Origin: an uncultured Thermodesulfobacteriota bacterium
GTDB lineage: Bacteria > Desulfobacterota > JBBIRW01
NCBI GenBank assembly: GCA_964505185.1
Contig: CAZDGM010000002.1
Span: 72,597 to 136,596, forward strand
Length of the DNA stretch: 64,000 nt
Direction: 5' to 3'
A program made the translations under genes and the position numbers. The notes beneath the pieces are model-generated. The model did not search any database, was not told the origin of the DNA, and worked only from the letters and a program-made list of their open reading frames with translations. Position 1 is the first letter of the stretch, and each line of letters starts with the position of its first letter. Of this stretch, positions 1 through 44,037 are shown in pieces.

Positions 1-330
1 TTTTCTTACTTCTATCACATTTTGTGAATTTATTACAATCCTGATCCCTTCGGATGCATAAGTTTCACAGCTTTTCAGGATTTCTCCCGTTTCCTCATTC
101 TCCACCACACAGAGCCCGCACCCTTCATATACCTCTCCTGCTTTTCCCTCTACCTTTCTTTCACCCTGATAAACAAATGCATCGGAGCGTATTTTTGATG
201 ACGGGGGAAGATCAGGATGTGTGCATAAATGAGGAATGTAAAAACCTTCCCTGAGCGCAGATTTCAGGATTGTTTCACCATCTGTTGAGCTTACCTTCCT
301 TCCATTGATAAAAAAATTAACCCTCTCCAT
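1..330 (-). CDS. Partial CDS, N-terminus only: 2Fe-2S cluster-binding domain protein (NuoG/FdhA/[FeFe]-hydrogenase N-terminal-like). It continues beyond the window start.
   Basis: Manual translation of the minus strand from an ATG at 328-330: MERVNFFINGRKVSSTDGETILKSALREGFYIPHLCTHPDL...GCGLCVVE. This is the typical 2Fe-2S ferredoxin-like N-domain pattern (INGxxV..GxTIL.A....G..IP.LC.HP.L......C..C.VE). It is not in the ORF track because it is truncated by the window edge. Confidence 0.5.
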   Translation of the reverse strand, partial: MERVNFFINGRKVSSTDGETILKSALREGFYIPHLCTHPDLPPSSKIRSDAFVYQGERKVEGKAGEVYEGCGLCVVENEETGEILKSCETYASEGIRIVINSQNVIEVRK

Positions 331-333
331 ATT

Positions 334-615
334 TTACCAGCTGTGGGTAATTGCCTTTGGATAACATGCCTCAATGCAGGGAAGGCTAATCCACCCTTTT
401 GCAGGTTTACATGGTGCACACTCATATTTGAGCGATTTCCTGTATATCTCCTTTATTGCAACAACTTCATCATCATAATCATCGATGATCTTTTCAAACA
501 TACCTTTTGGACATGCTTGAATACACGGCTTATCTTTACATACTGCACACTTGTCTGTATCAATGGAGATAAAAAACTCTCCGGATCCATCCATATATCC
601 ATAATTTGCAATCAT
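334..615 (-). CDS. 2x[4Fe-4S] ferredoxin (BzdM/Fdx-like electron donor)
   Basis: 93 aa with two CxxCxxxC...CP-type cluster motifs (CAVCKDKPCIQACP and CAPCKP...CIEACYP). It is the last gene of the BCR-like operon, separated by 12 nt from the upstream ATPase gene. Confidence 0.75.
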   Translation of the reverse strand: MIANYGYMDGSGEFFISIDTDKCAVCKDKPCIQACPKGMFEKIIDDYDDEVVAIKEIYRKSLKYECAPCKPAKGWISLPCIEACYPKAITHSW

Positions 616-627
616 ATATTCTCCTTT

Positions 628-1503
628 TTAAGCAGCACTTCTTTCCTTCTTCACTATTGCAGTTGCAAAGAGTGCCGCGCCTAATGCCCCTGCAATCTGA
701 CTATCATAATCAGTCTTCATCGCCTCAATTCCAAGCAGTTTCTCTATCCTCTTTACAACCCCTATATTTTTTGCAATTCCACCTGTTATAAAAAATTCCC
801 TTTCAACTGTAACCCTTTCAAGGAGTGTAACAACCCTCTCAGCCATGGCCTGACAGTATGCAGCAAGGACCTTATTTTTACTCCACCCCTCCTTCATGAG
901 AGCCATTGCTTCCGATTTCGCAAAAACCACGCACACATTGCTTACAGCAGGAACATCCTCATCAACTTCCAGTGATCTCTGTCCTATCTCCTCAATAGGA
1001 ACAGCAAGGAGATCCGCTATAACCTCCATCCCCCTCCCTGTTCCGGCTGCACATTTGTCATTCATAAGGAAATTGATAACCTTGCCTTTTTCGTCGCATT
1101 TTATCGCCTTGCAATCCTGTCCACCCATATCCAGTATAGTCCTTACCTTTGGACCTCCCATGTAGTTTGCACCCCTTGCATGGCATGCAATCTCAGTGAT
1201 TGCTCTGTTAGCAAAGGGAATATTTACCCTTCCATAACCGGTTCCCACAATGTAGTGTATCTTATCCATTGTAAGGCCTGTTCCCTCAATGGCGCGGTCC
1301 ATCGCCTTCTTTGCACTATCAGGGCTATTTGATCCTGTTCTTATGTTGCTGTATGCATAGAGTTCTCCATCAAGCATAATAACTGCCTGTGAACTCACCG
1401 ATCCCACATCAATTCCAGCAGCAATAATTTCCGCCTTTCTCCAGTCCATATCGGGATTTCTCCAGTTATACTCTTTCCATCTCCAGAATTCCCTATCACG
1501 CAT
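628..1503 (-). CDS. Activator-type ATPase subunit (BadF/BadG/BcrA/BcrD ASKHA family) of a BCR-like enzyme
   Basis: 291 aa. Glycine-rich phosphate loop AAGIDVGS near the N-terminus and conserved FITGGIAKN and CAAGTGR motifs typical of CoA-substrate-specific enzyme activases. It sits next to a second, different ATPase gene. Confidence 0.8.
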   Translation of the reverse strand: MRDREFWRWKEYNWRNPDMDWRKAEIIAAGIDVGSVSSQAVIMLDGELYAYSNIRTGSNSPDSAKKAMDRAIEGTGLTMDKIHYIVGTGYGRVNIPFANRAITEIACHARGANYMGGPKVRTILDMGGQDCKAIKCDEKGKVINFLMNDKCAAGTGRGMEVIADLLAVPIEEIGQRSLEVDEDVPAVSNVCVVFAKSEAMALMKEGWSKNKVLAAYCQAMAERVVTLLERVTVEREFFITGGIAKNIGVVKRIEKLLGIEAMKTDYDSQIAGALGAALFATAIVKKERSAA

Positions 1504-1508
1504 CTCTT

Positions 1509-2294
1509 TTACTCCTCCCTGATTTTTCCCTCAGACCCTATTAATGCCGCACCTATTGCGCCAACAAAATCGGGCTCCTCGGGGATTATTATATTTTCTA
1601 TTCCCAGCGATCTTTTCAGCGATTGAACAAAACCTGGATTCTTTGCAACCCCTCCAATAAAGGCAAGCTCCCTCTCCACACCAACCCTTCTAACCATTGC
1701 AGTAACCCTGCTTGCCATTGCATCGTGCACAGCCTTTGATATATCCTCCTTACTCGTTCCTGAATGGATAAGGGATACAACCTCCGATTCTGCAAAAACT
1801 GCACACTGGGCATTCATCGGTATTTCCTTATTAGATTTAAGTGATGCTGCAGCAAACTCATCCAGTTCCATCTCAACTGCCCTTGCCATTGCCTCAACAA
1901 AAGAACCCGCTCCTGCTGCACACTTCTCATTAACAGCGAAATCGATAACCCTTCCTGATGCATCACATCTTATGGCCCTCCCTTCCTCAGCTCCAACATC
2001 AATAACAGTTCTTACAGAGGGATATAAAAACACTGTGCCCTTAGCATCAGCTGTAACATCTGTTACACTGAATGTTGCTATATCAACAAGCTTTCTCCCC
2101 ACACCTGTTGAAACCACAGCTCCAAGATCTTCAAATCCAACAGACAGCTGATCCAGTGCCTTTTTCAATGCCTCCCTTGCGCTTTCCTTTTCATCAAATC
2201 CACCGGTGATTTTGCTCTTTGCCACGATCTTTCCATCCTTTATCAGGATAACCTTTATCATCTTTGCTCCCATATCGATACCTGCAAAAATCAT
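1509..2294 (-). CDS. Second activator-type ATPase subunit (BadF/BadG/BcrA/BcrD family)
   Basis: 261 aa, MIFAGIDMGAK...CAAGAGSF...FIGGVAKN. It is a paralogue of the neighbouring ATPase. A heterodimeric ATPase pair is characteristic of class I benzoyl-CoA reductases. Confidence 0.8.
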   Translation of the reverse strand: MIFAGIDMGAKMIKVILIKDGKIVAKSKITGGFDEKESAREALKKALDQLSVGFEDLGAVVSTGVGRKLVDIATFSVTDVTADAKGTVFLYPSVRTVIDVGAEEGRAIRCDASGRVIDFAVNEKCAAGAGSFVEAMARAVEMELDEFAAASLKSNKEIPMNAQCAVFAESEVVSLIHSGTSKEDISKAVHDAMASRVTAMVRRVGVERELAFIGGVAKNPGFVQSLKRSLGIENIIIPEEPDFVGAIGAALIGSEGKIREE

Positions 2295-2308
2295 CCTTTC
2301 CTCCCTTG

Positions 2309-3613
2309 TTAAGCTATTTTTGAAAGCCCCAGTGTTTCCATAAAGGAGTCTATCCTTGCAATAACCCTTTTTTCGTCGAATTCGTTTTCATCGCCCATAT
2401 TGCCCTCGTAGGTCATAACAGGAATACCATGCTTGATGATTCCGAGCCTGTTTTCCATAATTCCCATTGTAAGTCCTTCACACCCTCTGTTGAGATGAAG
2501 AATAACACCATCAACCTTCCATTCCCTTATGATTCTCAACATCATCTCTGTTTTTAATTTCGGATCATAGAAATGCTGCCATTCCGGCTTTGAAAGGTTC
2601 CAGTCTGCATAGTAGCGGAGTGCCTCATCCCTGTTTCTCAATTTAATGCCAAGCTGTTCAGGTGTCTTTCTCGGTCCCCATGAACCATCTTCCTGATCAG
2701 CAAAGATACCCTGAAGTCCAAATGTATACAGAGATCCCACTGAAACAGCACCAAAACTCTCAAGGTACCTGTAGATCCTGAGAAATCCCCAGGGAGGTTG
2801 TGTATCCGTTATCAGGCGGCACCTTTCCGTAGGAACAGCTGCTATACTCCTCTCAACCCTGTCCTTAACCTCGTCTCTGAGCTCTCTGTAAAAAGAAGCA
2901 ACCTCCTTTGATGCCTTGTTAAGCGTTGCAAGGACATACAGTGAATACATGCTTTTTTCATCAAGTGGTGCTGGAATAGCCTTATTAAGTGTACATATTT
3001 CAGCCCAGAGTGATGTAACTTCAAATTCCGTATTTATTGCTTCGATGAGCTTTTCATCATCGAATTTTCTTCCCGTTACCTTCTCCAGCCATTCAATGGA
3101 TTCATGCATCTGATTTACAACATACATCAATCTGTTTTCATCAAGCTCATTGTATGAACCAACGCTGACATCAAAGATAAAAAGGGGAACATTTTCATAC
3201 TCTGCAATTGCCTGGTACCATTTTGAATGTGTGCAACATATCTGAATCTGAAAGCAAAAATCGGGTTTTGGAAACTCCCCTCCAAAAAGATACCTGTTAA
3301 GATACATGGAGCCCAGATAGCTCCTCATATAAGCACAGAGATCATGGGTCCATCCCCTTGCTTCCGCTGCTTGCTGGCATTCTTCGTTTAGCTTTCTTTC
3401 AAAGGCAACGGAGGCCCCATAAGGCTCACTTGTAAGCACATATACATCATCGCCAAGCCCGTACGGGATTGCGTGAAATGACCATGCAGAGCCTGAATAT
3501 CGGATTCCTCCCCTCTCGTGTGCTGTTGCATAATCCCTGTATATCTTTGTCCTCAGCTCCTTTGCCTTGTTCCAGCATTTAAGGGGTTCTGATCTATATC
3601 TCCTAATTTCCAT
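2309..3613 (-). CDS. BcrB/BzdO/HgdB-like large subunit (2-hydroxyacyl-CoA dehydratase/benzoyl-CoA reductase family)
   Basis: 434 aa with the Cys-rich pattern typical of the HGD-D/BcrB family. It lies between the BcrC-like gene and the ATPase genes. Confidence 0.75.
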
Positions 3614-3635
3614 TTCCTCCTCCCTTTAAAATTAA

Positions 3636-4796
3636 TTAAAACAATCCTTCATCAAACAGATCTATGCCCCCAAGCGTCTCAAGAAATGCCTCTACCCTTA
3701 CCCTGAATGGTCCCAATGGATTTATTGAATCAAATTCAAGAAGGATGGATGGGATACCGTTTTCCTGAAGGAAATTTTTGAGCACTGGATTGTCCCCCTC
3801 GTGAGGATCGCAGAATTTCTGCTGGATTATTATAGCCCCCTGAACATTGTAATCCTTTGCAAGTTTCAGTATATGCTGAAACCTGTTCCTTGCCGGATAA
3901 TCCTTTGTTGGACATGGGGGTCTATCGATATATCTGTCTGCAATTGATTGCATTATATCGTCTGAAATATCCACGGGGTTCCAGAAATACCTGCTCCCTG
4001 CACACTGCTCATCAATAACAATCGTCGCACCAAGGGATTCTATCATTTTAAGAAATTCGGCATCATCATTCTCGCTTCCAACAGTCATAAGCCTTATTCC
4101 CGTTTTTCTATCAATCCTCCTTTCCGGTAGAACCTTCAACACCTCCTCCAGGGCCCTGGTGTGCTCCTCTTTGTCGATAAACTGGCTTGTTATTGCCATA
4201 AACATACATTCAAGCCCTGTAACAGGTGGATGCTTCTCCTTTCTGAACTCATAGATCTTTCTTAAAAGATTGCGGTTTCTGTTCAAAAGCATGACGGCAT
4301 CCCGAAGCCTATCCCTTTCTATTTTCCTCCCCACCTCTTCCTCGATAAATCTTTTAAACCGCTCGAGCTCTCCCTTTAAATAGACCCTTGAAAATGGGGA
4401 TTGTACCTCATTGGGCATGGGAAGGTAGTAAGCATACTTTACAGGAATATGCGATCTCCATGTATTGAAGGTCTGCCGAAAATGCAGGCACGACTGGGCA
4501 ATGACAATACCATCGAGATATTCATATCTCCCTTTAAGGCCCTGTGCAAGTGCATCCCTGCAAAAGGGACAGAACATTCCAAAAATGAATGGCTCTGTAA
4601 CATCCTGAATCTCATGGCTTCCAAGGATGCGCACAGGAAGTATTCCGGCAGCATAAAGCATCTCTTCAGGTACATAAGTGCAAAAGGTTCCAAATATGGG
4701 CCTTCCTGTCCTCTCCTTCCACCTTTTCGCATATTCGTGCCGATTGTAATACCACTCATGGAATATATCCATCACATCTGAATGAAATATGCCCAT
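3636..4796 (-). CDS. BcrC/BzdN/HgdA-like large subunit (2-hydroxyacyl-CoA dehydratase/benzoyl-CoA reductase family)
   Basis: 386 aa with an FCDPH motif near the C-terminus, as in BcrC/BadD/HgdA family proteins. It is the first gene of the operon. Confidence 0.75.
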   Translation of the reverse strand: MGIFHSDVMDIFHEWYYNRHEYAKRWKERTGRPIFGTFCTYVPEEMLYAAGILPVRILGSHEIQDVTEPFIFGMFCPFCRDALAQGLKGRYEYLDGIVIAQSCLHFRQTFNTWRSHIPVKYAYYLPMPNEVQSPFSRVYLKGELERFKRFIEEEVGRKIERDRLRDAVMLLNRNRNLLRKIYEFRKEKHPPVTGLECMFMAITSQFIDKEEHTRALEEVLKVLPERRIDRKTGIRLMTVGSENDDAEFLKMIESLGATIVIDEQCAGSRYFWNPVDISDDIMQSIADRYIDRPPCPTKDYPARNRFQHILKLAKDYNVQGAIIIQQKFCDPHEGDNPVLKNFLQENGIPSILLEFDSINPLGPFRVRVEAFLETLGGIDLFDEGLF

Positions 4797-4836
4797 TTAA
4801 GATCCTCCTTTAATTTTTATCCCTTCATTGGCAGAA

Positions 4837-4852
4837 TGCAAATTCTATTCCA
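4837..4852 (-). promoter_or_regulatory. Candidate sigma-54 (-24/-12) promoter of the BCR-like operon
   Basis: Minus-strand sequence TGGAAT-AGAAT-TTGCAT has GG-N10-GC spacing matching TGGCAC-N5-TTGCW. It lies about 40 nt upstream of the start at 4796, and an NtrC-family activator gene is adjacent. Confidence 0.45.
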
Positions 4853-4961
4853 GAATGGAAAATTGTTTTATTTAATAAAATCTTGAAGAATATTGTATCC
4901 TATTAATTTTTCAAAATTTTCCGGATCCTTATCGATTCATAATCTCATGTCAAAGAATAGG

Positions 4962-4998
4962 TGATAAATTTTTATCATTTGAGGGATAAAAATTTTTC
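4962..4998. promoter_or_regulatory. Tandem imperfect palindromes, candidate enhancer (UAS) sites
   Basis: TGATAAA-TT-TTTATCA (4962-4977, a perfect 7-2-7 inverted repeat) and GATAAAAATTTTTC (4985-4998). Their centres are about 22 bp apart, roughly 110-150 bp upstream of the sigma-54 candidate. Confidence 0.3.
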
Positions 4999-5003
4999 GC
5001 TCC

Positions 5004-6380
5004 TCAATCAATGCGCAGCCTCTTTATGTGGTAGCAAAGGTTGGCCCTGTTTATCCCTAGTATTCTTGCGGCAAGTGCCTTATTCCCATTAGCCATCCTG
5101 AGCGCTTTCCTTATCGCACGGGCCATAACCTCATCAAGCAAAGAATTAATGTTAATACCGCCTGTCAAATCTATCTCACTTATAAACATATCCTTACCCT
5201 TATGCTCCCCAAGCATCTCCTTCGGGAGGTTAGCAACACCTATATAATCTATATCCTCAAGAATCATTATCCTTTCTATAGTATTCCTCAGCTCCCTTAC
5301 ATTCCCCCTCCAGGGATACCGGAGAAAGACCTCCTCGGCTTCCTTGGTAAGACCCTTTACTTTTCTATTAAACCTTTCGTTGAAAACCCCTATGAAATGC
5401 CTCGCAAGCGGAAGGATGTCTTCTTTTCTTTCCCTAAGTGGAGGAATATATATCGATATGACTTTCAGCCTGTAATACAGATCCTCGCGGAAAAGCCCCT
5501 CTTTTATGAGCTTTTCTAAATCCTTATTCGTTGCAGCGATAATTCTAACATCAAATGGAATGCTCTTAACACCGCCCACCCTTCTGAAGCTCTTCTCTTC
5601 AATCGCCCTTAACAACTTTGCCTGAAGCACCATATCCATGTCGCCAATCTCGTCAAGGAATATGGTTCCACCATCAGCCTCCTCAAAAAGCCCTCTCTTT
5701 GTTGTCTTTGCATCAGTAAATGCCCCCTTCTCGTATCCAAACAGCTCACTCTCAAGAAGATCCCTCGGAATCGCCGCACAGTTAATGCTTACAAAGGATT
5801 TACCAGCCCTTGGGCTTTCATAATGCAGGGCTCTTGCTATTAATTCCTTTCCTGTGCCACTCTCTCCATAGATAAGAACCGTAACATCGGATTTAGGTGC
5901 AACCTTACGAATGATATCGAATATCTCTCTCATGGCTGGACTTTCGCCTATGATATTCGGAATCCCATATCTCTTACTCTGCTCCTCAACAATCTTTTTC
6001 ATCTCCCTGTGAAGGGATCGGGTTTCAAGGGCAAGCTTAACAATTAATGATATTTCATTTGCCTTAAACGGTTTACTTATATAATCATATGCCCCGAGTT
6101 TTATCGCTTTAACTGCAGAACTTACCGTTCCATATGCCGTCATAATAATAATAAGAACATCAGATTGCATTTCTTTAAAATCTTTTAACAGCTCGAGCCC
6201 ATTCCCATCAGGAAGCCTCAGATCAAGAAGCACAAGACCGGGTGAATGAAGACTGAACTTCTCTCTCGCTTCATCTGCACTCCCGGCGAGATGAACTTCG
6301 TATCCCTTCTTTTCAAGTAGCTGCTTTAGAGATGTTCTTATAAGCTCTTCATCATCAACAATAAGAATCCTTTCACCCAT
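5004..6380 (-). CDS. Sigma-54-dependent response regulator (NtrC/AtoC family: REC + AAA+ + Fis-type HTH)
   Basis: 458 aa with an N-terminal receiver (IVDDEE...[11 protein letters not shown]), a GESGTGKE Walker A motif, a GAFTDA region and a C-terminal HTH. Confidence 0.9.
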
Positions 6381-6395
6381 AATTAACTCTGTTAA

Positions 6396-8003
6396 TTAAC
6401 TGTTTGCTTTTTTATATGCCGGAAGATATATAGTAAATACGCTTCCCTTGCCTTCCTCACTTTCAACATCTATCCATCCCCCATGTTCCTTTATAATTGA
6501 ATGCGCTATACTCAATCCAAGTCCTGTTCCACGCTGCTTGGTTGTGAAGAATGGATCGAATATCTGATCTCTGATAAATGGAGGAATCCCCTTTCCGGAA
6601 TCCCTTATCTCAACAGCAATGAAATCGTCTTTCCTATAGGTCTTTATCTCAATTCTTGATCCAGGCTTACCTGCTTCCATTGCATTTATGCATAGATTAA
6701 ATAGAACCTGTTTTATCCTATCAGCATCAACATAAACATTAGTATTGTCATCACTTTTTGTGATTATCATCATCTGCCCTTCCTTCTTTAACCTTTCCTC
6801 AAATATCTCGGCGAATTCTTCAATGATGGTATTAATATCGGCAGGCTTCCTCTCGGGCATGGAGGGTCTTGCAAAATCAAGGAGGGAATTGACTATCCCC
6901 TCGAGACGAATTATTTCATCAGATATCCTCTCTATTAATTTTGAAGACTCCTCATTCATTGGAATCTCATCCCTTATGATCTCGAGGGAAACACTTATCC
7001 CTGTAAGGGGATTTCTAATTTCATGAGCTATACCGGCTGCCAGATGACCCAGTGCTGCCAGGTGACTCATACGCCTTATCTGCTCATCCATTTTCATCTT
7101 TTCCGTGAGATCATGCAAAATAATAATAGCTCCTGAGGACTTATCATCCTTATCCTTCATGGGCGCCATGGAAATTGATAGATACATCTCTCCCTTTCCA
7201 TGAACATTCATTCTTGTTTCAAAATAATTAACTATTTGTGAATTATTTATTACTTCTCTGAATTTTTCTGAAAGTTCATGATTATATTCAAAATACCTCA
7301 GAAACTGTTTTCCAGGATAATCTTTTCCATCAAAACAGAAATTATCTTCCCACGATTTATTTCCTAATATTATATTCCCTGATGTATCAACGGCGACGAT
7401 GGCATTGGGTGATGATTGAAGGATTGTTTTAACAAGATTCCTTTCCCTCTTTACTGTTTCAAGGAGACGATTCATCTCTATTACAAGCCCCGCCTGATTT
7501 GCAAACATCTGCAGCAGCTCAATATCCTCGGCTGTGATATCTGTTTTGCTGAAACTTCTGTCAGCTGCTATGGTTCCTATGACCCTTTGTCTTGCAAGAA
7601 CAGGAACATGGACACAACAACTTCTCTGTAAAGCAAGATTTCTCTTTTTATCAAGTTCTGTCAGCAAATCATCATACAATCCATCCTTTATAAAATAAAC
7701 CTTCCCTGTTTTTATAACTTTTGTTTCAACGCAATCATCTTCAGGAATTCTGTATTTTATATTTTTGATACTCATTTTACATCCAATATTCATAACACCC
7801 TCAAGGGTTTTCCCATCTTCACTCAGCAGATACAGAGCAACCCTGTCATATTTAAGCCCATTTATAATACTTTCAAGGATACCGTTCAGAACCCCTTCTG
7901 GAGGCATTGGGCTTGCCATCAGGTTACTTATGCGGAGCAGGCTCGATAGGATTTCACGAACCCTCAAGAATTCTTTTCTTCCCACCTTCATAGCCCCCAG
8001 CAA
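6396..8003 (-). CDS. Soluble sensor histidine kinase (GAF-PAS-HisKA-HATPase_c)
   Basis: 535 aa with no TM segment. H-box HEIRNPLTGI and C-terminal G1/G2 ATPase motifs (DSGKGIP, GTGLGLSI). It sits 15 nt upstream of its cognate NtrC-type regulator gene. Confidence 0.85.
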   Translation of the reverse strand: MLGAMKVGRKEFLRVREILSSLLRISNLMASPMPPEGVLNGILESIINGLKYDRVALYLLSEDGKTLEGVMNIGCKMSIKNIKYRIPEDDCVETKVIKTGKVYFIKDGLYDDLLTELDKKRNLALQRSCCVHVPVLARQRVIGTIAADRSFSKTDITAEDIELLQMFANQAGLVIEMNRLLETVKRERNLVKTILQSSPNAIVAVDTSGNIILGNKSWEDNFCFDGKDYPGKQFLRYFEYNHELSEKFREVINNSQIVNYFETRMNVHGKGEMYLSISMAPMKDKDDKSSGAIIILHDLTEKMKMDEQIRRMSHLAALGHLAAGIAHEIRNPLTGISVSLEIIRDEIPMNEESSKLIERISDEIIRLEGIVNSLLDFARPSMPERKPADINTIIEEFAEIFEERLKKEGQMMIITKSDDNTNVYVDADRIKQVLFNLCINAMEAGKPGSRIEIKTYRKDDFIAVEIRDSGKGIPPFIRDQIFDPFFTTKQRGTGLGLSIAHSIIKEHGGWIDVESEEGKGSVFTIYLPAYKKANS

Positions 8004-8193
8004 TTAACTCTTATCTATATGATATAATATCCAAAAAAAGACGATATTTGAACTGGATATTTTAGAAATCAAAAATCCATCACCGGAAGAATTCTCATTA
8101 ATCTTAAAACAATTAGCAGAAGTTTACTTTTCTGCTTATCAGGAGGGAAAGAGGGAGTATTTCTGGCATACAAAGAAAAGGGTTCTTTCCTAT

Positions 8194-8553
8194 TTGAAAT
8201 GGTTATACAGGAAAGATTCATCGGGATTCTTTATAGCCTGGGAAGAAGGAGTAATCCAGGGCTTTGCATCCGTACATTATAACTGGATTGACCATGATGG
8301 AAGGGAAGTTGTTGAACTCCATGAGATCACTGTAAGGAAGGAGAGCCAGAGGAGAGGGATCGGGAGGGCACTCATGATGAGGATATTTGAAGAGACGGCA
8401 AAAAGGGGGAGGAATTCCATCGCCCTTTGGGTTGGTGAAGACAATATTAACGCAATAAAATTTTATGAAAAGCTGGGCTTTATTGCGGAAATGAAGCTGG
8501 GGGTATGGATGAAGATGGTAAAGAGGATGATCGGGATGAAAGAAGGGCCCTGA
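8194..8553 (+). CDS. GNAT family N-acetyltransferase. The tracked ORF starts at a TTG, and the conserved N-terminal region extends upstream to about 8029 without a canonical start.
   Basis: Motif A RRGIGRALM. The upstream in-frame translation (LEIKNPSPEEFSLILKQLAEVYFSAYQEGKREYFWH...) looks like the GNAT N-terminal beta-alpha region but contains no ATG, GTG or TTG. Confidence 0.7.
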   Translation: MKWLYRKDSSGFFIAWEEGVIQGFASVHYNWIDHDGREVVELHEITVRKESQRRGIGRALMMRIFEETAKRGRNSIALWVGEDNINAIKFYEKLGFIAEMKLGVWMKMVKRMIGMKEGP

Positions 8554-26045: not shown

Positions 26046-26900
26046 CTATTGAATTATTACTGTATCACCAAAACTTTTTATCCTTTCAACCACTTCGTTT
26101 ATTACCCAATCAGGCGTTGATGCACCTGCAGTGATACCGACGCTCTTTGCATTATAAAACCACTCCATTCTTAATTCGTCCGCAATTTCAACATGATATG
26201 TCTTTGGATTAATTTCGTGGCACATTTGTGCGATTCTCTTTGTATTGGCGCTGTTATAACCACCAACAACAATCATACAGTCAACATTCGATGCAATCCT
26301 GCATGAATTCTGCTGATTAATTAATGTTGCATTGCAAAGCGTATTCATATATCTCAATTCTTTAACCTTACCAATTAATTTTAACACAACTTCTTTAACT
26401 CTCTCAGGGGATTGTGTTGTTTGTGCAACAATTCCCACTCTATCCTTTTTTGTAAATTTATTTAGAAGATTCTCATCTGCTATGGCAATTCTTCCAGGAT
26501 AACCATAACTCATTATGCTTTTCACTTCGGGATGATCCTCATCACCAACCACAACGACGAAGTAACCTTCCCTTGAAAAAAGGGATGTATATTCTTGAAC
26601 CCTTTTTACAAAAGGGCATGTTGCATCTATAATCTTTAAACCTTTATCCTGGGCCTTCTTAAGCTCGGGATAGGTTATACCATGTGATCTTATAATAACC
26701 CTGCCTTCATCTATCTCATCAACGGATGCGATGCTTTTGAGACCCATTTCTTCCATCCTCTTTACCATCTGCGGATTATGTATTATGTCACCAAGGCTGA
26801 AAATTGGTGAGAAATCCTCCTCGATGGCTTTATAGGCTATGCTGATTGCCCTTTTAACGCCAAAACAAAAACCAGCACTTGGAGCAATGTATATCTCCAT
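26046..26900 (-). CDS. ispH: 4-hydroxy-3-methylbut-2-enyl diphosphate reductase (IspH/LytB)
   Basis: 284 aa, MEIYIAPSAGFCFGVKRAI..., with the conserved Cys triad of LytB. Confidence 0.9.
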   Translation of the reverse strand: MEIYIAPSAGFCFGVKRAISIAYKAIEEDFSPIFSLGDIIHNPQMVKRMEEMGLKSIASVDEIDEGRVIIRSHGITYPELKKAQDKGLKIIDATCPFVKRVQEYTSLFSREGYFVVVVGDEDHPEVKSIMSYGYPGRIAIADENLLNKFTKKDRVGIVAQTTQSPERVKEVVLKLIGKVKELRYMNTLCNATLINQQNSCRIASNVDCMIVVGGYNSANTKRIAQMCHEINPKTYHVEIADELRMEWFYNAKSVGITAGASTPDWVINEVVERIKSFGDTVIIQ

Positions 26901-26903
26901 TTA

Positions 26904-27596
26904 TTATTTTCCTCCAGTATGGGAAAGGAGTGGTTTTATATATTGTAACATCAATTCCACAACCTCGTCTATACTCATGAAGGTGGAATCTATACGGATA
27001 CTATCAGAAGGTGCACGAAGTGGCGAGATCTTTCTTGTGCTATCATAGGCATCCCTCTTCAATACCTCTCCCTCAACAACTTTCCTTTCAATCACCACCC
27101 CTTTTTCCTTGAGTTGCAACCACCTTCTTCGACCTCTTTCTTCGAGACTTGCATCAAGATAAAATTTTATTTCCGCATCAGGAACAACCTCGCTTCCCGT
27201 ATCCCTCCCTTCCAGAACCACACCCCCTCTTTCTGAAAGCTTTCTTTGCAATTGTGTAAGAACAACTCTTACCTTTTTAAATCCGGACACCTTTGAAGTT
27301 ATCATATCTATTTCTGGATCCCTTATCCTGTCAGTTACATCCTCACCATTACAGAGAACCCTTGTATCTTTCCCTTTTTGTATGAAATCTATCTCCACAT
27401 GATCCATAAATCTCTCCACTTCTTTCTCGTCTTCGAGATTGATGCCGCTCTTATATATGGAGTAAGCCACTGCCCGATACATGGCACCCGTGTCTATGTA
27501 GTTATACCCTAACCTTTCTGCAAGGATTCTACCCGCAGAGCTTTTCCCTGCCCCTGAAGGGCCATCAATAGTAATCACAATACCATTTCCCCTCAT
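26904..27596 (-). CDS. cmk: Cytidylate kinase
   Basis: 230 aa with P-loop ITIDGPSGAGKSS. It sits in the conserved aroA-cmk-rpsA arrangement. Confidence 0.9.
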   Translation of the reverse strand: MRGNGIVITIDGPSGAGKSSAGRILAERLGYNYIDTGAMYRAVAYSIYKSGINLEDEKEVERFMDHVEIDFIQKGKDTRVLCNGEDVTDRIRDPEIDMITSKVSGFKKVRVVLTQLQRKLSERGGVVLEGRDTGSEVVPDAEIKFYLDASLEERGRRRWLQLKEKGVVIERKVVEGEVLKRDAYDSTRKISPLRAPSDSIRIDSTFMSIDEVVELMLQYIKPLLSHTGGK

Positions 27597-28888
27597 GAAT
27601 TCCCGAAAATAACAGTATTCCTCAGGAGTTCAAAGAAAGAAGGGAATGAGGTCCTAATACACTCAATCCCCCTTACCTCTGACTCGCCCTCAGCAATAAG
27701 GGAGGCTATTATAAGTGCCATTGCAACGCGGTGGTCACCGTGGCTCTCAAAAACTGCGCTATCTATTCTCCCCTTTCCCTCAATGATCATCCCATCCTCA
27801 AGCTCCTCAACCTTTACACCCATCTTCATTAATTCACTGCACATCGACTTAATTCTGTCGGACTCCTTTACCCTCAGCTCAGAGGCATCCCTTATCTCCG
27901 TCTCTCCCTCTGCCATTGCAGCTGCAATACATAATACAGGTATTTCATCTATGAGCCTTGGAATCAGGGGGCCTGATATTTTAATCCCTTTGAGTCTACT
28001 TGCTTTTACATATAGATCGGCAACATCTTCCTCACAGATTTTTCTTAGATTCATTATTTCAATATTTCCACCCATCTGTTTCAGCACATCGATTATTCCA
28101 CTTCTTGTGTAATTCACTCCAACATTTTTAACCAGAAGTTCACTATTGTTCAGTAAAAGAGCTGCAACAATAAAAAATGATGCTGATGAAAGATCGCCTG
28201 GTATAAAAATCTCCCTCGCCTCTGGTTGCTGATGACCTTTTATACTTATCTTTAAATTATTTCTTGAGAGATTTACACCAAAATAGGAAAGCATCCTCTC
28301 GGTATGATCTCTTGATTGAATAGGTTCTTCTATTTCCGTGATTCCATCAGCATAAATTCCAGCAAAGAGGATGCATGACTTAACCTGAGCACTTGCAACG
28401 TTCATCTTGTATGATATTGCCTTTAGTCTTCCACCTTTTATCACAAGAGGTGCAAAGCCACCTTCTCGTGAAAGTACTTCTGCACCCATTAATCTCAATG
28501 GTTCCAATATTCTACCCATCGGTCTCCTTCTAAGAGATTCATCACCCGTAATCACAGAAAGGAAATCCTGTCCGCTGAGGATCCCTGATATCAGCCGCAT
28601 GGTTGTTCCTGAATTTCCCGCATCAATTACATCTGAAGGCTCCTTAAGACCGAAAAGCTCTCTCCCTTTTATTATCAGATCAGCATTTCTTTGCTCCACA
28701 TCCACCCCCATCATCTCGAATGCCTTCAATGTCCTGGTGTTATCTTCACCCTTTAAATAGCTGTAAATGCAGCTAACACCCCTTGCAACTGATGAGATCA
28801 TTATTGCCCGGTGCGTTATGGATTTGTCACCAGGAGGAACAATCTCTCCCTCAATCCTCCTTGCTCTTCCAAGCCTTACACTCTCCAT
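27593..28888 (-). CDS. aroA: 3-phosphoshikimate 1-carboxyvinyltransferase (EPSP synthase)
   Basis: 431 aa with EPSP synthase motifs (GDKSITHR, DxxNSGTTMRL). Confidence 0.9.
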   Translation of the reverse strand: MESVRLGRARRIEGEIVPPGDKSITHRAIMISSVARGVSCIYSYLKGEDNTRTLKAFEMMGVDVEQRNADLIIKGRELFGLKEPSDVIDAGNSGTTMRLISGILSGQDFLSVITGDESLRRRPMGRILEPLRLMGAEVLSREGGFAPLVIKGGRLKAISYKMNVASAQVKSCILFAGIYADGITEIEEPIQSRDHTERMLSYFGVNLSRNNLKISIKGHQQPEAREIFIPGDLSSASFFIVAALLLNNSELLVKNVGVNYTRSGIIDVLKQMGGNIEIMNLRKICEEDVADLYVKASRLKGIKISGPLIPRLIDEIPVLCIAAAMAEGETEIRDASELRVKESDRIKSMCSELMKMGVKVEELEDGMIIEGKGRIDSAVFESHGDHRVAMALIIASLIAEGESEVRGIECIRTSFPSFFELLRNTVIFGNS

Positions 28889-29765
28889 TTATTAAACCTC
28901 TAATAGTTGCATCTCTTGCCTTCTTTGAAGCCGCAAATGTTCTTCTCAGCAGTTCCCTATCACCCTCTCTGATAGCCCTTTTCATATTCTCTAATTCCTT
29001 TTCAAAAGATTCTATTGCATAAAGGATATTGTCCCTGTTAAGGATACATATATCTCTCCACATGATAGGATCGCTTGATGCGATCCTTGTAAAATCCCTG
29101 AAGCCTGCCCCTGTAAACCGGAAAAGTTCCCCGTAGTATTCCTCTGCATTGGCAACTGTATTTACTATCGTATATGCAAGAACATGTGGAAGATGGCTGA
29201 CCATTGCAAATATCCTGTCATGTTCAACAGGATCCATCTCAACAACAGAACTTCCAAGCCTCTTCCACATCTCCTTTACTATATTCAATGCATCAGGATT
29301 AGTTTTTTCAGTTGGTGTAAGGACACAGATCTTTCCATCAAACAGTGTGGAGAAGGATGCATCAAAGCCTGAAAATTCTGTTCCCGCCAGCGGGTGCCCA
29401 CCGATGAAACTTACATTGGATGAAATTTCGCATTCAACCTCCTCTACAATCTTTCTCTTTATGCTTCCAACATCGGTCAAAACAAATCCGGCGCTTGTTT
29501 TTCTTAAAACCTCCTTTGCAACCTTTGTTATCTGTTCAGGAGGTGTTGATAGAATCAGTAAATCGGTTTCATCAATTACGTCAAAAATATTATTTGTAAC
29601 CTTTTCTGCAATTCCTGCCTCTTCTATCTTTCTTAATGTCTCTCCGCTTATATCAACTGCGAATATTCTTCTGAAAATCTTTCTTTCGCTTGCAGCCTTT
29701 GCAATTGAACCTCCTATCAAGCCAAGTCCAACGATCGTTGCTGTATCAAGAATAAATTTATCCAT
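28851..29765 (-). CDS. tyrA: Prephenate dehydrogenase
   Basis: 304 aa with an N-terminal Rossmann fold (VGLGLIGGSIAKA) and a PDH core (GGHPLAG). Confidence 0.8.
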   Translation of the reverse strand: MDKFILDTATIVGLGLIGGSIAKAASERKIFRRIFAVDISGETLRKIEEAGIAEKVTNNIFDVIDETDLLILSTPPEQITKVAKEVLRKTSAGFVLTDVGSIKRKIVEEVECEISSNVSFIGGHPLAGTEFSGFDASFSTLFDGKICVLTPTEKTNPDALNIVKEMWKRLGSSVVEMDPVEHDRIFAMVSHLPHVLAYTIVNTVANAEEYYGELFRFTGAGFRDFTRIASSDPIMWRDICILNRDNILYAIESFEKELENMKRAIREGDRELLRRTFAASKKARDATIRGLINGECKAWKSKED

Positions 29766-30778
29766 TAAAGACCCCTTCCAACAACCTTCGCAATCTTCTT
29801 AATGGCCTTCATGAGCTCCAGAAATCTATCAGGTTTAAGTGCCTGTGGTCCATCACATAAAGCCTTTTCAGGTTGATTATGAACCTCAACCATCACACCA
29901 TCAGCACCTGCCGCAATTGCAGCCATAGCCATCGGTTCTATGAGGTCCCACCTTCCAACCCCATGGCTTGGATCTACAAATATTGGAAGGTGACTCAATT
30001 GTTTAACGACAGGGACAGCGCTTAGATCAAGTGTATTTCTTGTTGCTGTTTCAAAGGTTCTTATCCCCCTTTCACAGAGGATTACATTGTTATTTCCCTG
30101 AGAAACGATATACTCTGCAGACATAAGCCATTCTTGAATTGTTGCGCTCAATCCTCTCTTAAGCATTACTGGCATCTTCGTAAGACCGATCTCTTTCAAA
30201 AGCTTGAAGTTCTGCATATTTCTTGCTCCAATCTGAATTATATCTGCATATTCACAGACATCTTCTATATCCCTTGGATCCATTACCTCTGTAATAACAG
30301 GGATACCTGTAACCTTCTTTGCCTCACGGAGATATTTGAGCCCTTCAACACCAAGCCCCTGGAAGCTGTAAGGCGATGTTCTTGGTTTAAAAGCACCACC
30401 CCTCAATATTGTTGCACCCGCTTTTTTGACAAACTTTGCAATCTCTACAATCATCTCTTTGTTCTCGACCGCGCAAGGACCTGCAATTACATGAACCTTT
30501 TTTGAACCGATTCTTAACCCATTGACCCTTATCACAGTGGACTCTGATTTAAACTCTCTGCTTACGAGTTTGAATGGCTTAAGGATGGGAAGAACCTTTT
30601 CTACACCAGGCATCACCTCAAGGGGCTCGCCCTGCAAAATAGCTTCGTCCCCGACAGCTCCAACTATTGTCCTGAATTTCCCCTTTGAAATATGAGCTTT
30701 TAAACCAAGGCTTTCCAGTCGCTCAACTATCCTTTTTAGATCATCTTTTGTTGCGTCAGGTTTTAAAACAATTATCAT
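29765..30778 (-). CDS. 3-deoxy-7-phosphoheptulonate (DAHP) synthase, type I-beta with N-terminal regulatory domain
   Basis: 337 aa with a ferredoxin-like N-domain followed by a DAHPS/KDO8PS-type TIM barrel (GPCAVE, KPRTSPYSFQG). Confidence 0.8.
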   Translation of the reverse strand: MIIVLKPDATKDDLKRIVERLESLGLKAHISKGKFRTIVGAVGDEAILQGEPLEVMPGVEKVLPILKPFKLVSREFKSESTVIRVNGLRIGSKKVHVIAGPCAVENKEMIVEIAKFVKKAGATILRGGAFKPRTSPYSFQGLGVEGLKYLREAKKVTGIPVITEVMDPRDIEDVCEYADIIQIGARNMQNFKLLKEIGLTKMPVMLKRGLSATIQEWLMSAEYIVSQGNNNVILCERGIRTFETATRNTLDLSAVPVVKQLSHLPIFVDPSHGVGRWDLIEPMAMAAIAAGADGVMVEVHNQPEKALCDGPQALKPDRFLELMKAIKKIAKVVGRGL

Positions 30779-30805
30779 TTTATTATCCTCTGTTTTTGCT
30801 TTATG

Positions 30806-31903
30806 TTATTTGATCTCAGATAAAACTTTCTTCAGAGCCTTTATAAACTTCTCATTCTCCTGAGCCAATCCCACTGTAACCCTTATAAATTCCTTCAAAC
30901 CAAACCCTCCCATGGGTCTTACTATAACTCCTTCCTTCTGGAGCATCTTATATACAAGATGACCATCTCCTTTAACATTTATCAGGAAAAAATTTGCCTG
31001 GGTCTTTATATATTCAAGACCCATCTTATCCAGTTCGGAATAAAGATATTCAAGTCCTTTTCTATTAATTTCCTGCGATAAATGAACATGCTCATCATCA
31101 TCGAGTGCATAAAATGCACCTATCTGGGCAAGAGAATTAACATTAAAGGGTTGCCTTACCCTGTTCATATATTCAATTATCTCCGGTTTAGCAATCCCAT
31201 AACCGATTCTTAATCCAGCGAGTCCGTAAATTTTTGAAAATGTTCTTAACGTAACAAGATTTCTCTTTCCATTCTGGTAATGCAAGGAATCAGGGAATCC
31301 TGAATCAGTTACATATTCAGCATATGCTTCATCGATAACAGTTATGATGTCTTCGGGAACTGCTGAAAGAAATCTTTCGAACTCCTTCTTTCTGAAGATG
31401 GTCCCTGTTGGATTGTTAGGATTTGCAAGGAATATAATCCTTGTTTTATCGGTTACTGCCCCAAGTATTCCATCAAGATCTATACAAAAGTTCTTTAAAG
31501 GAACAGGCACTGAAATGCCATTTGCCGCCTTAACAATGAGTTTATAAACAACAAATGAAGGATCAGCCATAATAACTTGATCGTCCTTCTTCATAAAGGT
31601 TCTAACAATTAGTTCTATTATTTCATTCGAACCATTTCCAAAGATTATATTCTCCTCCTTAAATCCCAGCTTGGCTGCAAGCTTCCTCTTAAGATAATAG
31701 CAACCCCCGTCAGGATATCTGTTCAATTTATGGAGCTCTTTGATTATGCCCTCAATTGCTTTCCTTGAGGGTCCAACAGGATTTTCATTTGAAGCCAGTT
31801 TAACAGTTCCACTTATTCCAAGCTCACGCTCCAGCTCCTCTATTGGTTTCCCAGGTTGATATGGAATCAGTTCCTCGATATTTCTTTCAACAAGTTTTTT
31901 CAT
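30806..31903 (-). CDS. hisC: Histidinol-phosphate/aromatic aminotransferase (class II PLP)
   Basis: 365 aa; KLASNENPVGPS and the PLP lysine region (TFSKIYGLAGLRIGY). Confidence 0.8.
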   Translation of the reverse strand: MKKLVERNIEELIPYQPGKPIEELERELGISGTVKLASNENPVGPSRKAIEGIIKELHKLNRYPDGGCYYLKRKLAAKLGFKEENIIFGNGSNEIIELIVRTFMKKDDQVIMADPSFVVYKLIVKAANGISVPVPLKNFCIDLDGILGAVTDKTRIIFLANPNNPTGTIFRKKEFERFLSAVPEDIITVIDEAYAEYVTDSGFPDSLHYQNGKRNLVTLRTFSKIYGLAGLRIGYGIAKPEIIEYMNRVRQPFNVNSLAQIGAFYALDDDEHVHLSQEINRKGLEYLYSELDKMGLEYIKTQANFFLINVKGDGHLVYKMLQKEGVIVRPMGGFGLKEFIRVTVGLAQENEKFIKALKKVLSEIK

Positions 31904-31925
31904 TTAACCGCCTCCCTTAATCAGA

Positions 31926-33011
31926 TTACATAACCCTTGGATATGAACCAAGTATTTTTAAAAATGTGCACCTTTCTTTCAGTTCATCAACTGCCCTTTT
32001 AACTGTATCATCTTCAATATGTCCCTCAAGATCCAGAAAGAAAACATAATCCCAGGCTTTTGTCTTGTTTGGCCTTGATTCTATCTTTGTAAGATTTATG
32101 TTATTCTTTGCAAATGGCTCGAGCATTCTGTAAAGTGCTCCCACTTCATCCTTAACAGAAAAAAGTATCGATGTTTTATCCTTTCCTGTTCTTTCAGGAA
32201 TCTTTTTCCCAATCACTAGAAATCTTGTAAAATTGTTTATATTGTCTTCTATCTTCCTGTAAACAACACGTAGATCATATAAAAGAGCGGCAAATTCACT
32301 TGCTATTGCTGCACTCTTTAGGTCCTCAGATGCCATCTGTGCAGCTGCTGCAGTTGAAGCAACATCAATAACAGGTATATCAGGCATGTTGGTTTCAAGC
32401 CATTTCCTGCATTGAGCAATTGCATGTGGATGAGAATATATTCTTTTTATATCCTGTGGTCTGCCTGTTTTAGAAAGTAAATCATGAGAGACTTCAAGAA
32501 GAATCTCGCCACATATATTAATATTAGATTCAAGAAACATATCAAGCGTGTGGTTAACAACACCTTCCGTTGAATTCTCAACAGGAACAACACCAAAATC
32601 AGCACCACCCCTTTCCACAACATCAAATACTTCAGGAATCCCTCTTGCCATTATATATTCTGCAGAGAGGCCAAACCTATTTATGCAGGCAACATGTGTG
32701 AATGTAGCCTTTGGCCCCAGGAACGCAATTCTCAGCGGTTTCTCAAGTGAAAGTGATGCGGAAAGGATCTCTCTGTAAACGGATTTTATCGCCTCGCTTG
32801 GAAATGGACCTGTATTCCTATTCATAAGCCTTTCGTATATCTCCTGTTCCCTTGCCGGAACATAAAACTCCTGATTGTAATTTGTTTTTATCCTTCCGAT
32901 CTCGATAACGATCTCAGCCCTTTTATTAAGAAAATCGAGAATTGAATCATCAATCTCATCAATTTTTTTTCTCAATCTTTTTATCTCCTCATCTATCTGT
33001 ATTTCCTTCAT
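31926..33011 (-). CDS. pheA: Bifunctional chorismate mutase / prephenate dehydratase
   Basis: 361 aa with an N-terminal CM_2 helix domain, a PDT domain ([12 protein letters not shown]) and a C-terminal ACT domain. Confidence 0.85.
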
Positions 33012-38932: not shown

Positions 38933-40090
38933 TCAGACTATTATCCTTTTTTCTTTAAGTCGGGTGATTTCATTGCCACTGAACCCGAGTTCCATCATTA
39001 TTGATTCCGTATCGGAGTAAGGACTGCAGGGTTTAAGTTGATCACCCTCCTCATGGGGAATAAATCTCAATGGAATCCCCAGAAATTTCTTCCCATCTGA
39101 TTCCTCTATTATTTCAGCAAAATTTGCTTTTATAAATTTGTATGCCTCATCCATAGAAAAAACAGGCTCCATACATGCGTCCACATCACGGAATATCTCC
39201 TCCCATTCTTTCCTCGTTTTTGTTGAGATAATCCGAGAAATTATAGTTCTTAACCCTTGCTGATCCTCGCAGTACTGGGCATCAATCAGATCCTCCCTCC
39301 CTACTGCCCTGCAAAAGTTATCCCAGAATTTCCTCTCAAGGGATCCCATAGATATAAATTTACCATCTTTTGTTTTGTATATATTGTAACATGCAAGCCC
39401 ACCTGACAGTGGAATCCCTTTCTCTGGAGACCATCCATAATTCAGAAATGCATAATAATAATTTTGCATGAGGGAGAGGATGGAGCCATACATGGAGAGA
39501 TCTATATACCTTCCCTTTCCGGATATCCTGGATTCCAGAAGAGATGCAAGAATAGCTATTGATGCCCAGAATCCTGCCGCAAGGTCAGCCATCTGGACCG
39601 GAGGAGGCGTTTCTTTATCGAAGGTTGAAAGGAAGAGATGGAGCATTCCAGAAAGTGCCATATAGTTTATATCATGGTCACCCCTCATAGAGTAATTTCC
39701 ACTCTGTCCGTATCCTGTAATGGAGCAGTAGACAAGGGCTAGATTCAAATCCTTCACCCTCTCATAATCAAACCCAAGTCTCTCCATAACACCTGGCCTG
39801 AATTGTTCAACAAGCACAGAGGCAGTTTTTATAAGCCTTATAAATATCTCCTTACCTTCCCTTTCCTTAAGATTGAGCCCGATGCTCCTCTTCCCCCTGT
39901 TCAGCGCACTGTAGAGTGTATCATCACCGTCATAAACCGGATTTATAAACTGCGAGATCTCTATCCCACCTATTTGCTCAACCCTTATAACATCAGCTCC
40001 AAGGTCTGAAAGAATCATTGTACAGAATGGACCAGGAATATATCTGGTGAGATCTATTACCTTTATTCCATGAAGAAGCTTTTCCTTCAT
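38933..40090 (-). CDS. Family III CoA-transferase (CaiB/BaiF/Frc family)
   Basis: 385 aa; N-terminal GIKVIDLTRYIPGPFCTMILSDLGADVIRVE is the CoA_transf_3 signature. Confidence 0.8.
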   Translation of the reverse strand: MKEKLLHGIKVIDLTRYIPGPFCTMILSDLGADVIRVEQIGGIEISQFINPVYDGDDTLYSALNRGKRSIGLNLKEREGKEIFIRLIKTASVLVEQFRPGVMERLGFDYERVKDLNLALVYCSITGYGQSGNYSMRGDHDINYMALSGMLHLFLSTFDKETPPPVQMADLAAGFWASIAILASLLESRISGKGRYIDLSMYGSILSLMQNYYYAFLNYGWSPEKGIPLSGGLACYNIYKTKDGKFISMGSLERKFWDNFCRAVGREDLIDAQYCEDQQGLRTIISRIISTKTRKEWEEIFRDVDACMEPVFSMDEAYKFIKANFAEIIEESDGKKFLGIPLRFIPHEEGDQLKPCSPYSDTESIMMELGFSGNEITRLKEKRIIV

Positions 40091-42436: not shown

Positions 42437-42467
42437 ATATGGATTAGAATAAACAAGGAGGGAAAGA

Positions 42468-43850: not shown

Positions 43851-43991
43851 TTTCATTTTGTAATCAATCCTTCTTAATGATCCCTTTCAAAATGTAATCT
43901 AAAGGGGATCAATCATTGAACCCATAAAGGCCCGCATAAAATTTTCCCTAATATTTCAACAGAATAACATTTCAATTCTCATAAAAACCCA

Positions 43992-44007: not shown

Positions 44008-44037
44008 ATTCTTTCTGGTAAAACCCCTTTTTAATGG

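Follow-up and report, generated by a model that had tools for sequence, protein, structure and literature searches.

Which enzyme do the tightly packed iron–sulfur and ATPase genes at the start of this stretch of DNA encode, and which compound would that enzyme reduce? The stretch, referred to here as the window, comprises 64,000 nucleotides of contig CAZDGM010000002.1 (assembly GCA_964505185.1) from an uncultured Thermodesulfobacteriota bacterium, and all coordinates below are window positions. The segment 1–4796 contains five closely packed genes and the beginning (5′ end) of another; in the list of open reading frames (ORFs), all six lie on the minus strand. From sequence comparison, and with a probability of roughly 0.85, we read this segment as belonging to a catabolic operon, of which it is the promoter-proximal end and which encodes a Bzd-type class I benzoyl-coenzyme A (CoA) reductase.

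Gene content and subunit identity

Proteins were identified with NCBIfam equivalog models and their cut-offs, with Pfam, and by sequence search against solved structures in the Protein Data Bank (PDB). Related loci, given here with L numbers, come from a genome collection in which 483 stretches encode relatives of BzdO, and the locus survey covers the best 80 of these 483. The genes of the operon, each with the basis of its name, are listed here from the promoter-proximal end.

3636–4796, minus strand: bzdN, [8Fe-9S] double-cubane subunit, 386 amino acids (TIGR03190; match to 8s02_B)
2309–3613, minus strand: bzdO, catalytic subunit with the aqua-[4Fe-4S] cluster and the benzoyl-CoA site, 434 amino acids (TIGR03191; match to 8s02_A)
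1509–2294, minus strand: bzdP, first ATPase subunit of the electron-activating module, 261 amino acids (PF01869; TIGR00241; synteny)
628–1503, minus strand: bzdQ, second ATPase subunit, 291 amino acids (TIGR03192)
334–615, minus strand: bzdM, low-potential ferredoxin with eight cysteines, predicted electron donor to the reductase, 93 amino acids (identity to the ORF in bzdM position of locus L058; synteny)
1–330, minus strand: 5′ end (110 codons) of a bzdV-type iron–sulfur flavoprotein gene, [2Fe-2S] domain (identity to an 826-amino-acid ORF of locus L002)

From bzdN to the partial gene, the intergenic gaps measure 22, 14, 5, 12 and 3 nt, which fits a single operon, and no terminator-like site lies inside any of them (the count of such sites is about twice the shuffled mean, 15 versus 6.9). 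ORF coordinates and small gaps agree with the first-pass annotation, which had placed five minus-strand genes here. The frame at 1–330 opens with ATG and continues past the window edge.

Both large proteins match the Pfam family PF06050 (HGD-D), with E values of 2e-90 and 2e-48, and both ATPases match PF01869 (BcrAD_BadFG; 1e-46 and 1e-54); these are the two families whose hidden Markov models the first-pass annotation had singled out for the two kinds of subunit. At the equivalog level, the 386-amino-acid protein passes the BzdN model TIGR03190 (552.5 bits, cut-off 453.8) and the 434-amino-acid protein passes the BzdO model TIGR03191 (693.7 bits, cut-off 448.6). Their best solved matches are the two large subunits of the Aromatoleum sp. 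CIB enzyme, 8s02_B for BzdN (E 6e-160, 58% identity, 535 bits) and 8s02_A for BzdO (E 1e-195, 64% identity, 654 bits), and the next solved structures, the HadBC dehydratase and MbdN/MbdO, follow at 52–156 bits. A match to both the Azoarcus Bzd and the Thauera Bcr operons had initially been proposed. It stands for the Azoarcus/Aromatoleum Bzd type and falls for Thauera, whose models score far below their cut-offs: BcrC reaches 135 of 421 bits on the 386-amino-acid protein, BcrB 64 of 487 on the 434-amino-acid protein, BcrA 145 of 578 on the 291-amino-acid protein, and BcrD 125 of 313 on the 261-amino-acid protein.

Besides gene content and family membership, conservation of the cluster ligands and active-site residues can be observed directly in the alignments. 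The [8Fe-9S] double cubane of CIB BzdN is ligated by Cys36, Cys73, Cys100, Cys263, Cys293 and Cys327, and Arg53, Arg267, Arg290 and His330 are also named (PMC11971306). All six cluster cysteines are kept in the window protein (C39, C76, C103, C265, C295 and C329), and R56, R269, R292 and H332 match the four further residues. The FCDPH motif that had been noticed in this subunit is indeed present and contributes C329 and H332. For CIB BzdO, a three-cysteine aqua-[4Fe-4S] site, the catalytic residues Glu65 and His131, and the residues Trp46, Ser44 and Gln124 have been described, together with Tyr97, Tyr298, Gln274, Leu302 and Leu383 at the benzoyl ring and thioester oxygen (PMC11971306). The window BzdO keeps the cluster cysteines (C93, C126 and C378), the catalytic pair (E63 and H129) and the three further residues (W44, S42 and Q122), and all residues of the benzoyl pocket and thioester contact are identical (Y95, Y296, Q272, L300 and L381).

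The 291-amino-acid ATPase passes the BzdQ model TIGR03192 (465.8 bits, cut-off 380.2), and its best solved match is MbdQ (9gai_D, E 9e-61, 209 bits). The 261-amino-acid ATPase scores below the same model (161 bits) and above the cut-off of the activase domain model TIGR00241 (217 bits, cut-off 125); Rhodocyclales loci have, in the bzdP position, an ORF with which it shares 52–56% identity. BzdP and BzdQ share only 36% identity over 235 residues, so they are old paralogues rather than recent duplicates of one activator. The two ATPases are thus non-identical, as the first-pass annotation had stressed, and the contrary case that it named, recent duplication of an HgdC-type activator, did not hold. 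Each protein keeps two cysteines aligned with the cluster cysteines of HgdC, HadI and MbdQ, which, from the role of these residues in HgdC (1HUX), we take to be ligands of a [4Fe-4S] cluster.

The phosphate-1 motif of BzdP reads GIDMGAK here, compared with GIDVGST in HgdC-type activators. We considered whether this marks a degenerate ATP site special to this organism and rejected the idea, because the motif occurs across the whole BzdP family in the form GxDxG(A/S)(K/R) (window and 75 related loci), with GIDMGSR in Rhodocyclales. In addition, Rhodocyclales BzdP has about 27 extra residues inserted in its N-terminal part; this insertion has no counterpart in most other lineages and explains why the window BzdP is shorter (261 amino acids). 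Taken together, the phosphate-1 motif and the insertion suggest that the two ATP sites of Bzd-type reductases may not be equivalent.

Substrate, downstream genes and rival readings

The exact BzdO sequence of the window is recorded solely on a 4.1-kb contig ending in the ferredoxin gene, and close relatives were therefore used for the sequence beyond position 1. Colinearity with the window extends over 10–13.6 kb in three independent close relatives, at nucleotide identities of 95.7% (L082), 93.8% (L002, a metagenome-assembled genome labelled “Deltaproteobacteria bacterium”) and 80% (L083/L084). In these loci, bzdM is followed by a bzdV gene encoding 826 amino acids, a small ORF, and genes for a crotonase of about 353 amino acids, a zinc-dependent alcohol dehydrogenase of about 346 and a second crotonase of about 256; a cytochrome c gene and metal-efflux genes come next. 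We regard the last three enzymes before the cytochrome as probable, not proven, Oah, Had and Dch proteins. The earlier observation that no ring-hydrolysing or hydratase gene lies within 8 kb is correct for the window itself; since oah/had/dch-like genes stand directly beyond position 1 in the relatives, this absence is an edge effect.

The physiological substrate is likely benzoyl-CoA, which we infer because the benzoyl-binding residues are all kept and oah/had/dch-like genes follow in the relatives. On this point we depart from the first-pass annotation, which had left the substrate open as aromatic or other CoA thioester. No class II bam genes were found among the ORFs of at least 120 amino acids judged to be real genes in the 64-kb window.

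Several observations weigh against assigning this operon to a benzoyl-CoA reductase. The same set of ORFs across the 64-kb window contains no aryl-CoA ligase of the type that forms adenosine monophosphate. The genes downstream of position 1 are known from the relatives only, and their products score below the equivalog cut-offs: the best NCBIfam match of the ~353-amino-acid crotonase is Oah TIGR03200 (190 bits, cut-off 464), that of the ~346-amino-acid zinc-dependent dehydrogenase is Had TIGR03201 (266 bits, cut-off 339), and for the ~256-amino-acid crotonase Dch TIGR03189 appears among generic enoyl-CoA hydratase matches (153 bits, cut-off 292). These three proteins are 31–50% identical to BzdY, BzdX and BzdW of Rhodocyclales. 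There is also no BzdP-specific model among the NCBIfam matches of the 261-amino-acid ATPase, which leaves synteny and the identity to Rhodocyclales proteins given above as the basis for calling it BzdP. Finally, reduction of 5,6,7,8-tetrahydro-2-naphthoyl-CoA has been proposed for a Bzd-type enzyme of other Deltaproteobacteria whose genes stand in the same order (PMC12016498), so the family name alone does not fix the substrate.

One further gene of the window touches on the activation of benzoate. A family III CoA-transferase is encoded at 38933–40090 (minus strand), and its best NCBIfam matches are oxalate, mesaconate and glutarate CoA-transferases, all below cut-off. This enzyme could in principle activate benzoate, but it lies 34 kb from the operon with nothing linking the two.

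The alternative that survives best is a Bzd-type aryl-CoA reductase with another substrate, either 5,6,7,8-tetrahydro-2-naphthoyl-CoA, as for ThnBCDE, or a methyl-, hydroxy- or halo-benzoyl-CoA; we consider it quite unlikely. In the deltaproteobacterial cultures N47 and NaphS2, ThnBCDE are homologous to BzdNOPQ and are followed by the ferredoxin gene thnF and, in N47, by the oxidoreductase gene thnG (PMC12016498, PMC6849830), and the host here is likewise labelled Deltaproteobacteria. The thn operon, however, comprises 22 genes, including those for MaoC dehydratases, thiolases and further β-oxidation enzymes, whereas the cluster of the relatives closes with just three genes, assigned to the Oah, Had and Dch families, before cytochrome c and efflux genes begin. 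That the three proteins encoded there remain below their equivalog cut-offs would suit an enzyme for another substrate. The active site argues the other way, because the five ring and thioester-oxygen residues and the counterpart of Trp46 are identical to the benzoyl-CoA-bound structure. As for a methylbenzoyl-CoA reductase, MbdN and MbdO match the large subunits far more weakly (119 and 52 bits) than do BzdN and BzdO (535 and 654 bits).

A 2-hydroxyacyl-CoA dehydratase of the HgdAB, HadBC or FldBC type, with its activator ATPases, would show the same Pfam families PF06050 and PF01869, and the ATPase in BzdP position is indeed slightly closer to the HadI activator (185 bits) than to MbdQ (179 bits). 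This reading is nevertheless effectively refuted. The HadB model reaches 147 bits on BzdO against a cut-off of 750 and the HadC model 162 bits on BzdN against a cut-off of 700, and two different ATPase genes are found here, compared with the one homodimeric activator of dehydratases. The N subunit has the six double-cubane cysteines, and BzdO has His129, the counterpart of CIB His131, which is among the residues separating BzdO from the dehydratase HadB, where alanine stands (PMC11971306). The probable benzoyl-CoA-pathway gene context of the relatives speaks against a dehydratase as well. With BzdN, BzdO and BzdQ above their cut-offs and the HadBC models far below theirs, the preference of the first-pass annotation for a heterotetrameric aryl-CoA reductase driven by adenosine triphosphate (ATP) over a dehydratase is upheld.

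Also effectively refuted is a reductase of the double-cubane cluster protein (DCCP) type, which would act with ATP on small molecules outside aromatic catabolism. The N subunit does match NF040772 (double_cubane), and the DCCP chains 7yyl/6eno are among its PDB matches. The NF040772 score of 195.5 bits, however, is below the cut-off of 350; a DCCP is homodimeric and has a single activase, while this operon encodes two different large subunits together with two different ATPases; and BzdO carries a full benzoyl-CoA site.

Electron supply and regulation

For the Bzd-type benzoyl-CoA reductase that we favour, an electron path can be proposed by homology. The BzdV-type flavoprotein would take electrons from reduced pyridine nucleotides (NAD(P)H) and pass them to the ferredoxin BzdM, which in turn would reduce the [4Fe-4S] cluster bridging the BzdP–BzdQ ATPase heterodimer. 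ATP hydrolysis would then push each electron to a lower potential and, via the [8Fe-9S] double cubane of BzdN, onto the aqua-[4Fe-4S] cluster of BzdO. At this site, transfer of hydrogen atoms from the water bound to the cluster would turn benzoyl-CoA into cyclohexa-1,5-diene-1-carbonyl-CoA, and Glu63 and His129 are the predicted acid/base groups. The oah-, had- and dch-like gene products seen in the relatives may convert the dienoyl-CoA further to 3-hydroxypimelyl-CoA.

The 93-amino-acid ferredoxin has eight cysteines in the non-canonical groups C-x2-C-x4-C-x3-CP and C-x2-C-x10-C-x3-C, and its matches to the Fer4 models of Pfam are weak (E about 1e-3). Over its full length, it is 65% identical to the ORF that follows bzdQ in the betaproteobacterial locus L058, which identifies it as BzdM and bears out the gene order bzdN-O-P-Q-M recognized in the first reading of this DNA. 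A ferredoxin gene directly follows bzdQ in most of the 80 related loci.

The 110-amino-acid fragment encoded at 1–330 matches the N-termini of NuoG, HoxU, HydA and GltD-fusion proteins and is 88% identical to the start of the 826-amino-acid protein of L002 (L002:13285-15765). The latter contains a [2Fe-2S] Fer2_4 domain, a NuoG/HydA-type 4Fe-4S domain, Fer4_20 and Pyr_redox_2 (a GltD/NfnB-like core), and the ORF in bzdV position of L058 can be aligned with it from end to end at 43% identity. The partial 2Fe-2S gene, earlier suggested to encode the ferredoxin-reducing partner, is accordingly the start of a BzdV orthologue. Compared with the L058 protein, the [2Fe-2S] domain of the window protein carries a 17-residue insertion (SSKIRSDAFVYQGERKV) at about residues 44–60.

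Directly after bzdV, outside the window, the relatives encode a small protein of 77–93 amino acids (L002:15786-16034, L082:12653-12934 and L083:15779-16012). It has no Pfam or NCBIfam match and shows the conserved motif GW..(R/Q)......PRL.E..E.Y...G.EV ... CxxC ... (I/V)(Y/F)TR. Of the 80 bzd loci, 40 encode this small CxxC protein, whose gene in Rhodocyclales stands directly after bzdM instead. It may work together with the ferredoxin and BzdV.

By sequence, the core of the L002 BzdV is closest to the solved chains 9bov_A, 9n5u_A (‘NfnA’) and 8oh5_C, and the next solved matches are the bifurcating NfnI (5jca_L), GltD and dihydropyrimidine dehydrogenase. We take 8oh5 to be the electron-bifurcating StnABC transhydrogenase, with 8oh5_C as StnC, its NfnB-like module. 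In the literature, BzdV is described as no more than a putative NADPH:ferredoxin oxidoreductase (PMC5658619), and AadN, an Nfn-like protein, has genetic support as electron donor to the benzoyl-CoA reductase of Rhodopseudomonas palustris (PMC9973337). It is conceivable, albeit doubtful, that BzdM, the ~826-amino-acid BzdV and the small CxxC protein form a flavin-based electron-bifurcating module rather than a simple NADPH:ferredoxin oxidoreductase; if true, this would explain how pyridine nucleotides reduce a very low-potential ferredoxin in organisms with Bzd-type enzymes. The biological question on which the locus bears is how BzdV reduces the ferredoxin; the window holds only 110 codons of the gene, and BzdV and the small CxxC protein are suitable targets for addressing it.

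The region upstream of bzdN contains two regulatory genes and two candidate control sites.

4838–4852, minus strand: candidate sigma-54 (−24/−12) promoter, TGGAAT-N5-TTTGCA, 42 nt before the bzdN ATG in a 207-nt spacer
4969–4992, no strand assigned: palindrome TTTTTATC-N8-GATAAAAA, candidate activator site, about 120–150 nt upstream of the −24/−12 motif
5004–6380, minus strand: NtrC/AtoC-type sigma-54-dependent response regulator (Response_reg, Sigma54_activat, HTH_8)
6396–8003, minus strand: GAF-PAS sensor histidine kinase (GAF, PAS, HisKA, HATPase_c)

AtoC is the best NCBIfam match of the response regulator and the kinase is AtoS-like, both below cut-off. The response regulator gene is syntenic in L002, L082 and L083, and the kinase gene is syntenic in the close relatives. 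The response regulator is likely the activator of the operon and the kinase its partner, and transcription would probably depend on both. Sigma-54 consensus matches number 31 in the whole window, compared with about 37.5 expected by chance, so the −24/−12 motif has no statistical weight alone; it was retained for its position and for its conservation in L083 (80% identical locus), where the motif is kept and the flanking bases differ. In the same locus, the arms of the palindrome are kept and its spacer is changed; the region is rich in A and T. From these features we infer a reasonable hypothesis, rather than a demonstrated case, for the −24/−12 motif as the operon promoter, and the palindrome is a candidate binding site of the sigma-54 activator. 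Sigma-70 promoter-like sequences in window positions 1–8300 are not above chance.

Remaining window, distribution and known systems

The remaining window consists mostly of housekeeping genes. An aromatic amino acid biosynthesis block at 26046–33011 (minus strand) encodes EPSP synthase, prephenate dehydrogenase, DAHP synthase, an aminotransferase and chorismate mutase/prephenate dehydratase, and also holds ispH (LytB), cmk and the gene for ribosomal protein S1. On the plus strand, positions 40550–50753 encode a HAMP-PAS histidine kinase, a sigma-54 response regulator, a single-domain receiver, a multihaem cytochrome (ExtKL-like), a 4Fe-4S protein, an NrfD membrane subunit, a Band 7 protein, a PhsA/QrcB-like molybdopterin oxidoreductase and a cytochrome c7-like protein, which probably constitute a respiratory or quinone-linked redox complex. 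Trehalose genes at 58291–63474 (minus strand), for a trehalose phosphatase, a GT20 glycosyltransferase and a TreT-like synthase, lie beside a gene for a DUF5752 protein. The guanine–cytosine (GC) skew is −0.1 to −0.37 where genes are on the minus strand (1–40000) and positive from about 40 kb, where the orientation flips, and it thus appears to follow the coding strand. Rfam and tRNA scans revealed only three tRNAs, far from the operon.

A bifunctional fructose-1,6-bisphosphate aldolase/phosphatase is encoded at 50758–51894 (minus strand; NF041126, 543 bits, cut-off 520). This enzyme is typical of archaea and of deep-branching or thermophilic bacteria, and its presence may be a hint to the host lineage. 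Judging by the bzd cluster, this uncultivated “Deltaproteobacteria” lineage is likely to degrade benzoate and other monoaromatics anaerobically by the ATP-consuming class I route. Class I enzymes are usually tied to facultative anaerobes; in obligate anaerobes, the class II enzyme, which does not depend on ATP, is the typical one.

At E ≤ 1e-30, 1,831 protein clusters match the window BzdO, and many of them already carry the name “benzoyl-CoA reductase, bzd-type, subunit O”; outside its own lineage, it has no relative above 74% identity. The order N-O-P-Q-ferredoxin-BzdV was found in about 50 of the 80 surveyed loci, which include Zixibacteria, Ignavibacteria, Calditrichaeota, Anaerolineae, Binatia, a Methanofastidiosia archaeon and Rhodocyclales. 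Such a uniform bzdNOPQ-M-V layout across phyla helps metagenome annotation. The operon described here is another example of this known, widely distributed system, and no new kind of system is revealed by it.

In some loci from Zixibacteria, Bacteroidetes and Ignavibacteriales (L018, L070 and L073), an additional set of HGD-D and activase genes, distantly related to the first, stands beside the bzd operon. Its products are 23–40% identical to O, N, P or Q and may represent another aryl-CoA reductase or a dehydratase.

Among characterized systems, the BzdNOPQ-BzdM-BzdV set of Aromatoleum (Azoarcus) sp. CIB and A. evansii shares the N-O-P-Q-ferredoxin order of the window, and its cluster ligands, catalytic glutamate and histidine, and benzoyl pocket are identical in the window proteins. 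Like the close relatives of the window, the Aromatoleum cluster encodes a BzdV of about 830 amino acids and members of the Dch, Had and Oah families, to which the corresponding proteins of the relatives probably belong. The differences lie in arrangement, sequence and regulation. The lower-pathway genes run oah-had-dch in the relatives and dch-had-oah in the Aromatoleum-type cluster, and bzdV stands directly after the ferredoxin gene in the relatives, unlike in the Aromatoleum type. The Oah- and Had-like proteins of the relatives are divergent, with 31–40% identity to the Rhodocyclales proteins. The regulator beside the window operon is a two-component sigma-54 system, whereas the BzdR regulator of Azoarcus is not adjacent.

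BcrCBAD-Fdx of Thauera aromatica and BadDEFG of Rhodopseudomonas palustris have the same architecture and overall mechanism, with a ferredoxin gene after the structural genes; the long BcrA-type ATPase of the Thauera type is absent from the window operon. The 3-methylbenzoyl-CoA reductase MbdONQP (PDB 9g87 and 9gai) is, like the window enzyme, a class I heterotetramer with two short ATPases, but its MbdN and MbdO only weakly match the window large subunits (119 and 52 bits). ThnBCDE of N47 and NaphS2 is a Bzd-type class I enzyme of Deltaproteobacteria with the same order of four subunits, ferredoxin and oxidoreductase; its module belongs to the 22-gene operon with MaoC dehydratases and thiolases, and the contrast with the Oah-, Had- and Dch-family genes of the relatives is drawn from gene descriptions. 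Clusters of bzdNOPQ with ferredoxin, bzdV and dch/had/oah have also been reported in Chloroflexi single-cell genomes and Asgard metagenome-assembled genomes (PMC5736913, PMC8163825). These clusters have the same gene set as the system described here and likewise occur outside the classical facultative denitrifiers; the host lineage differs, and in the window sigma-54 two-component regulators adjoin the operon.

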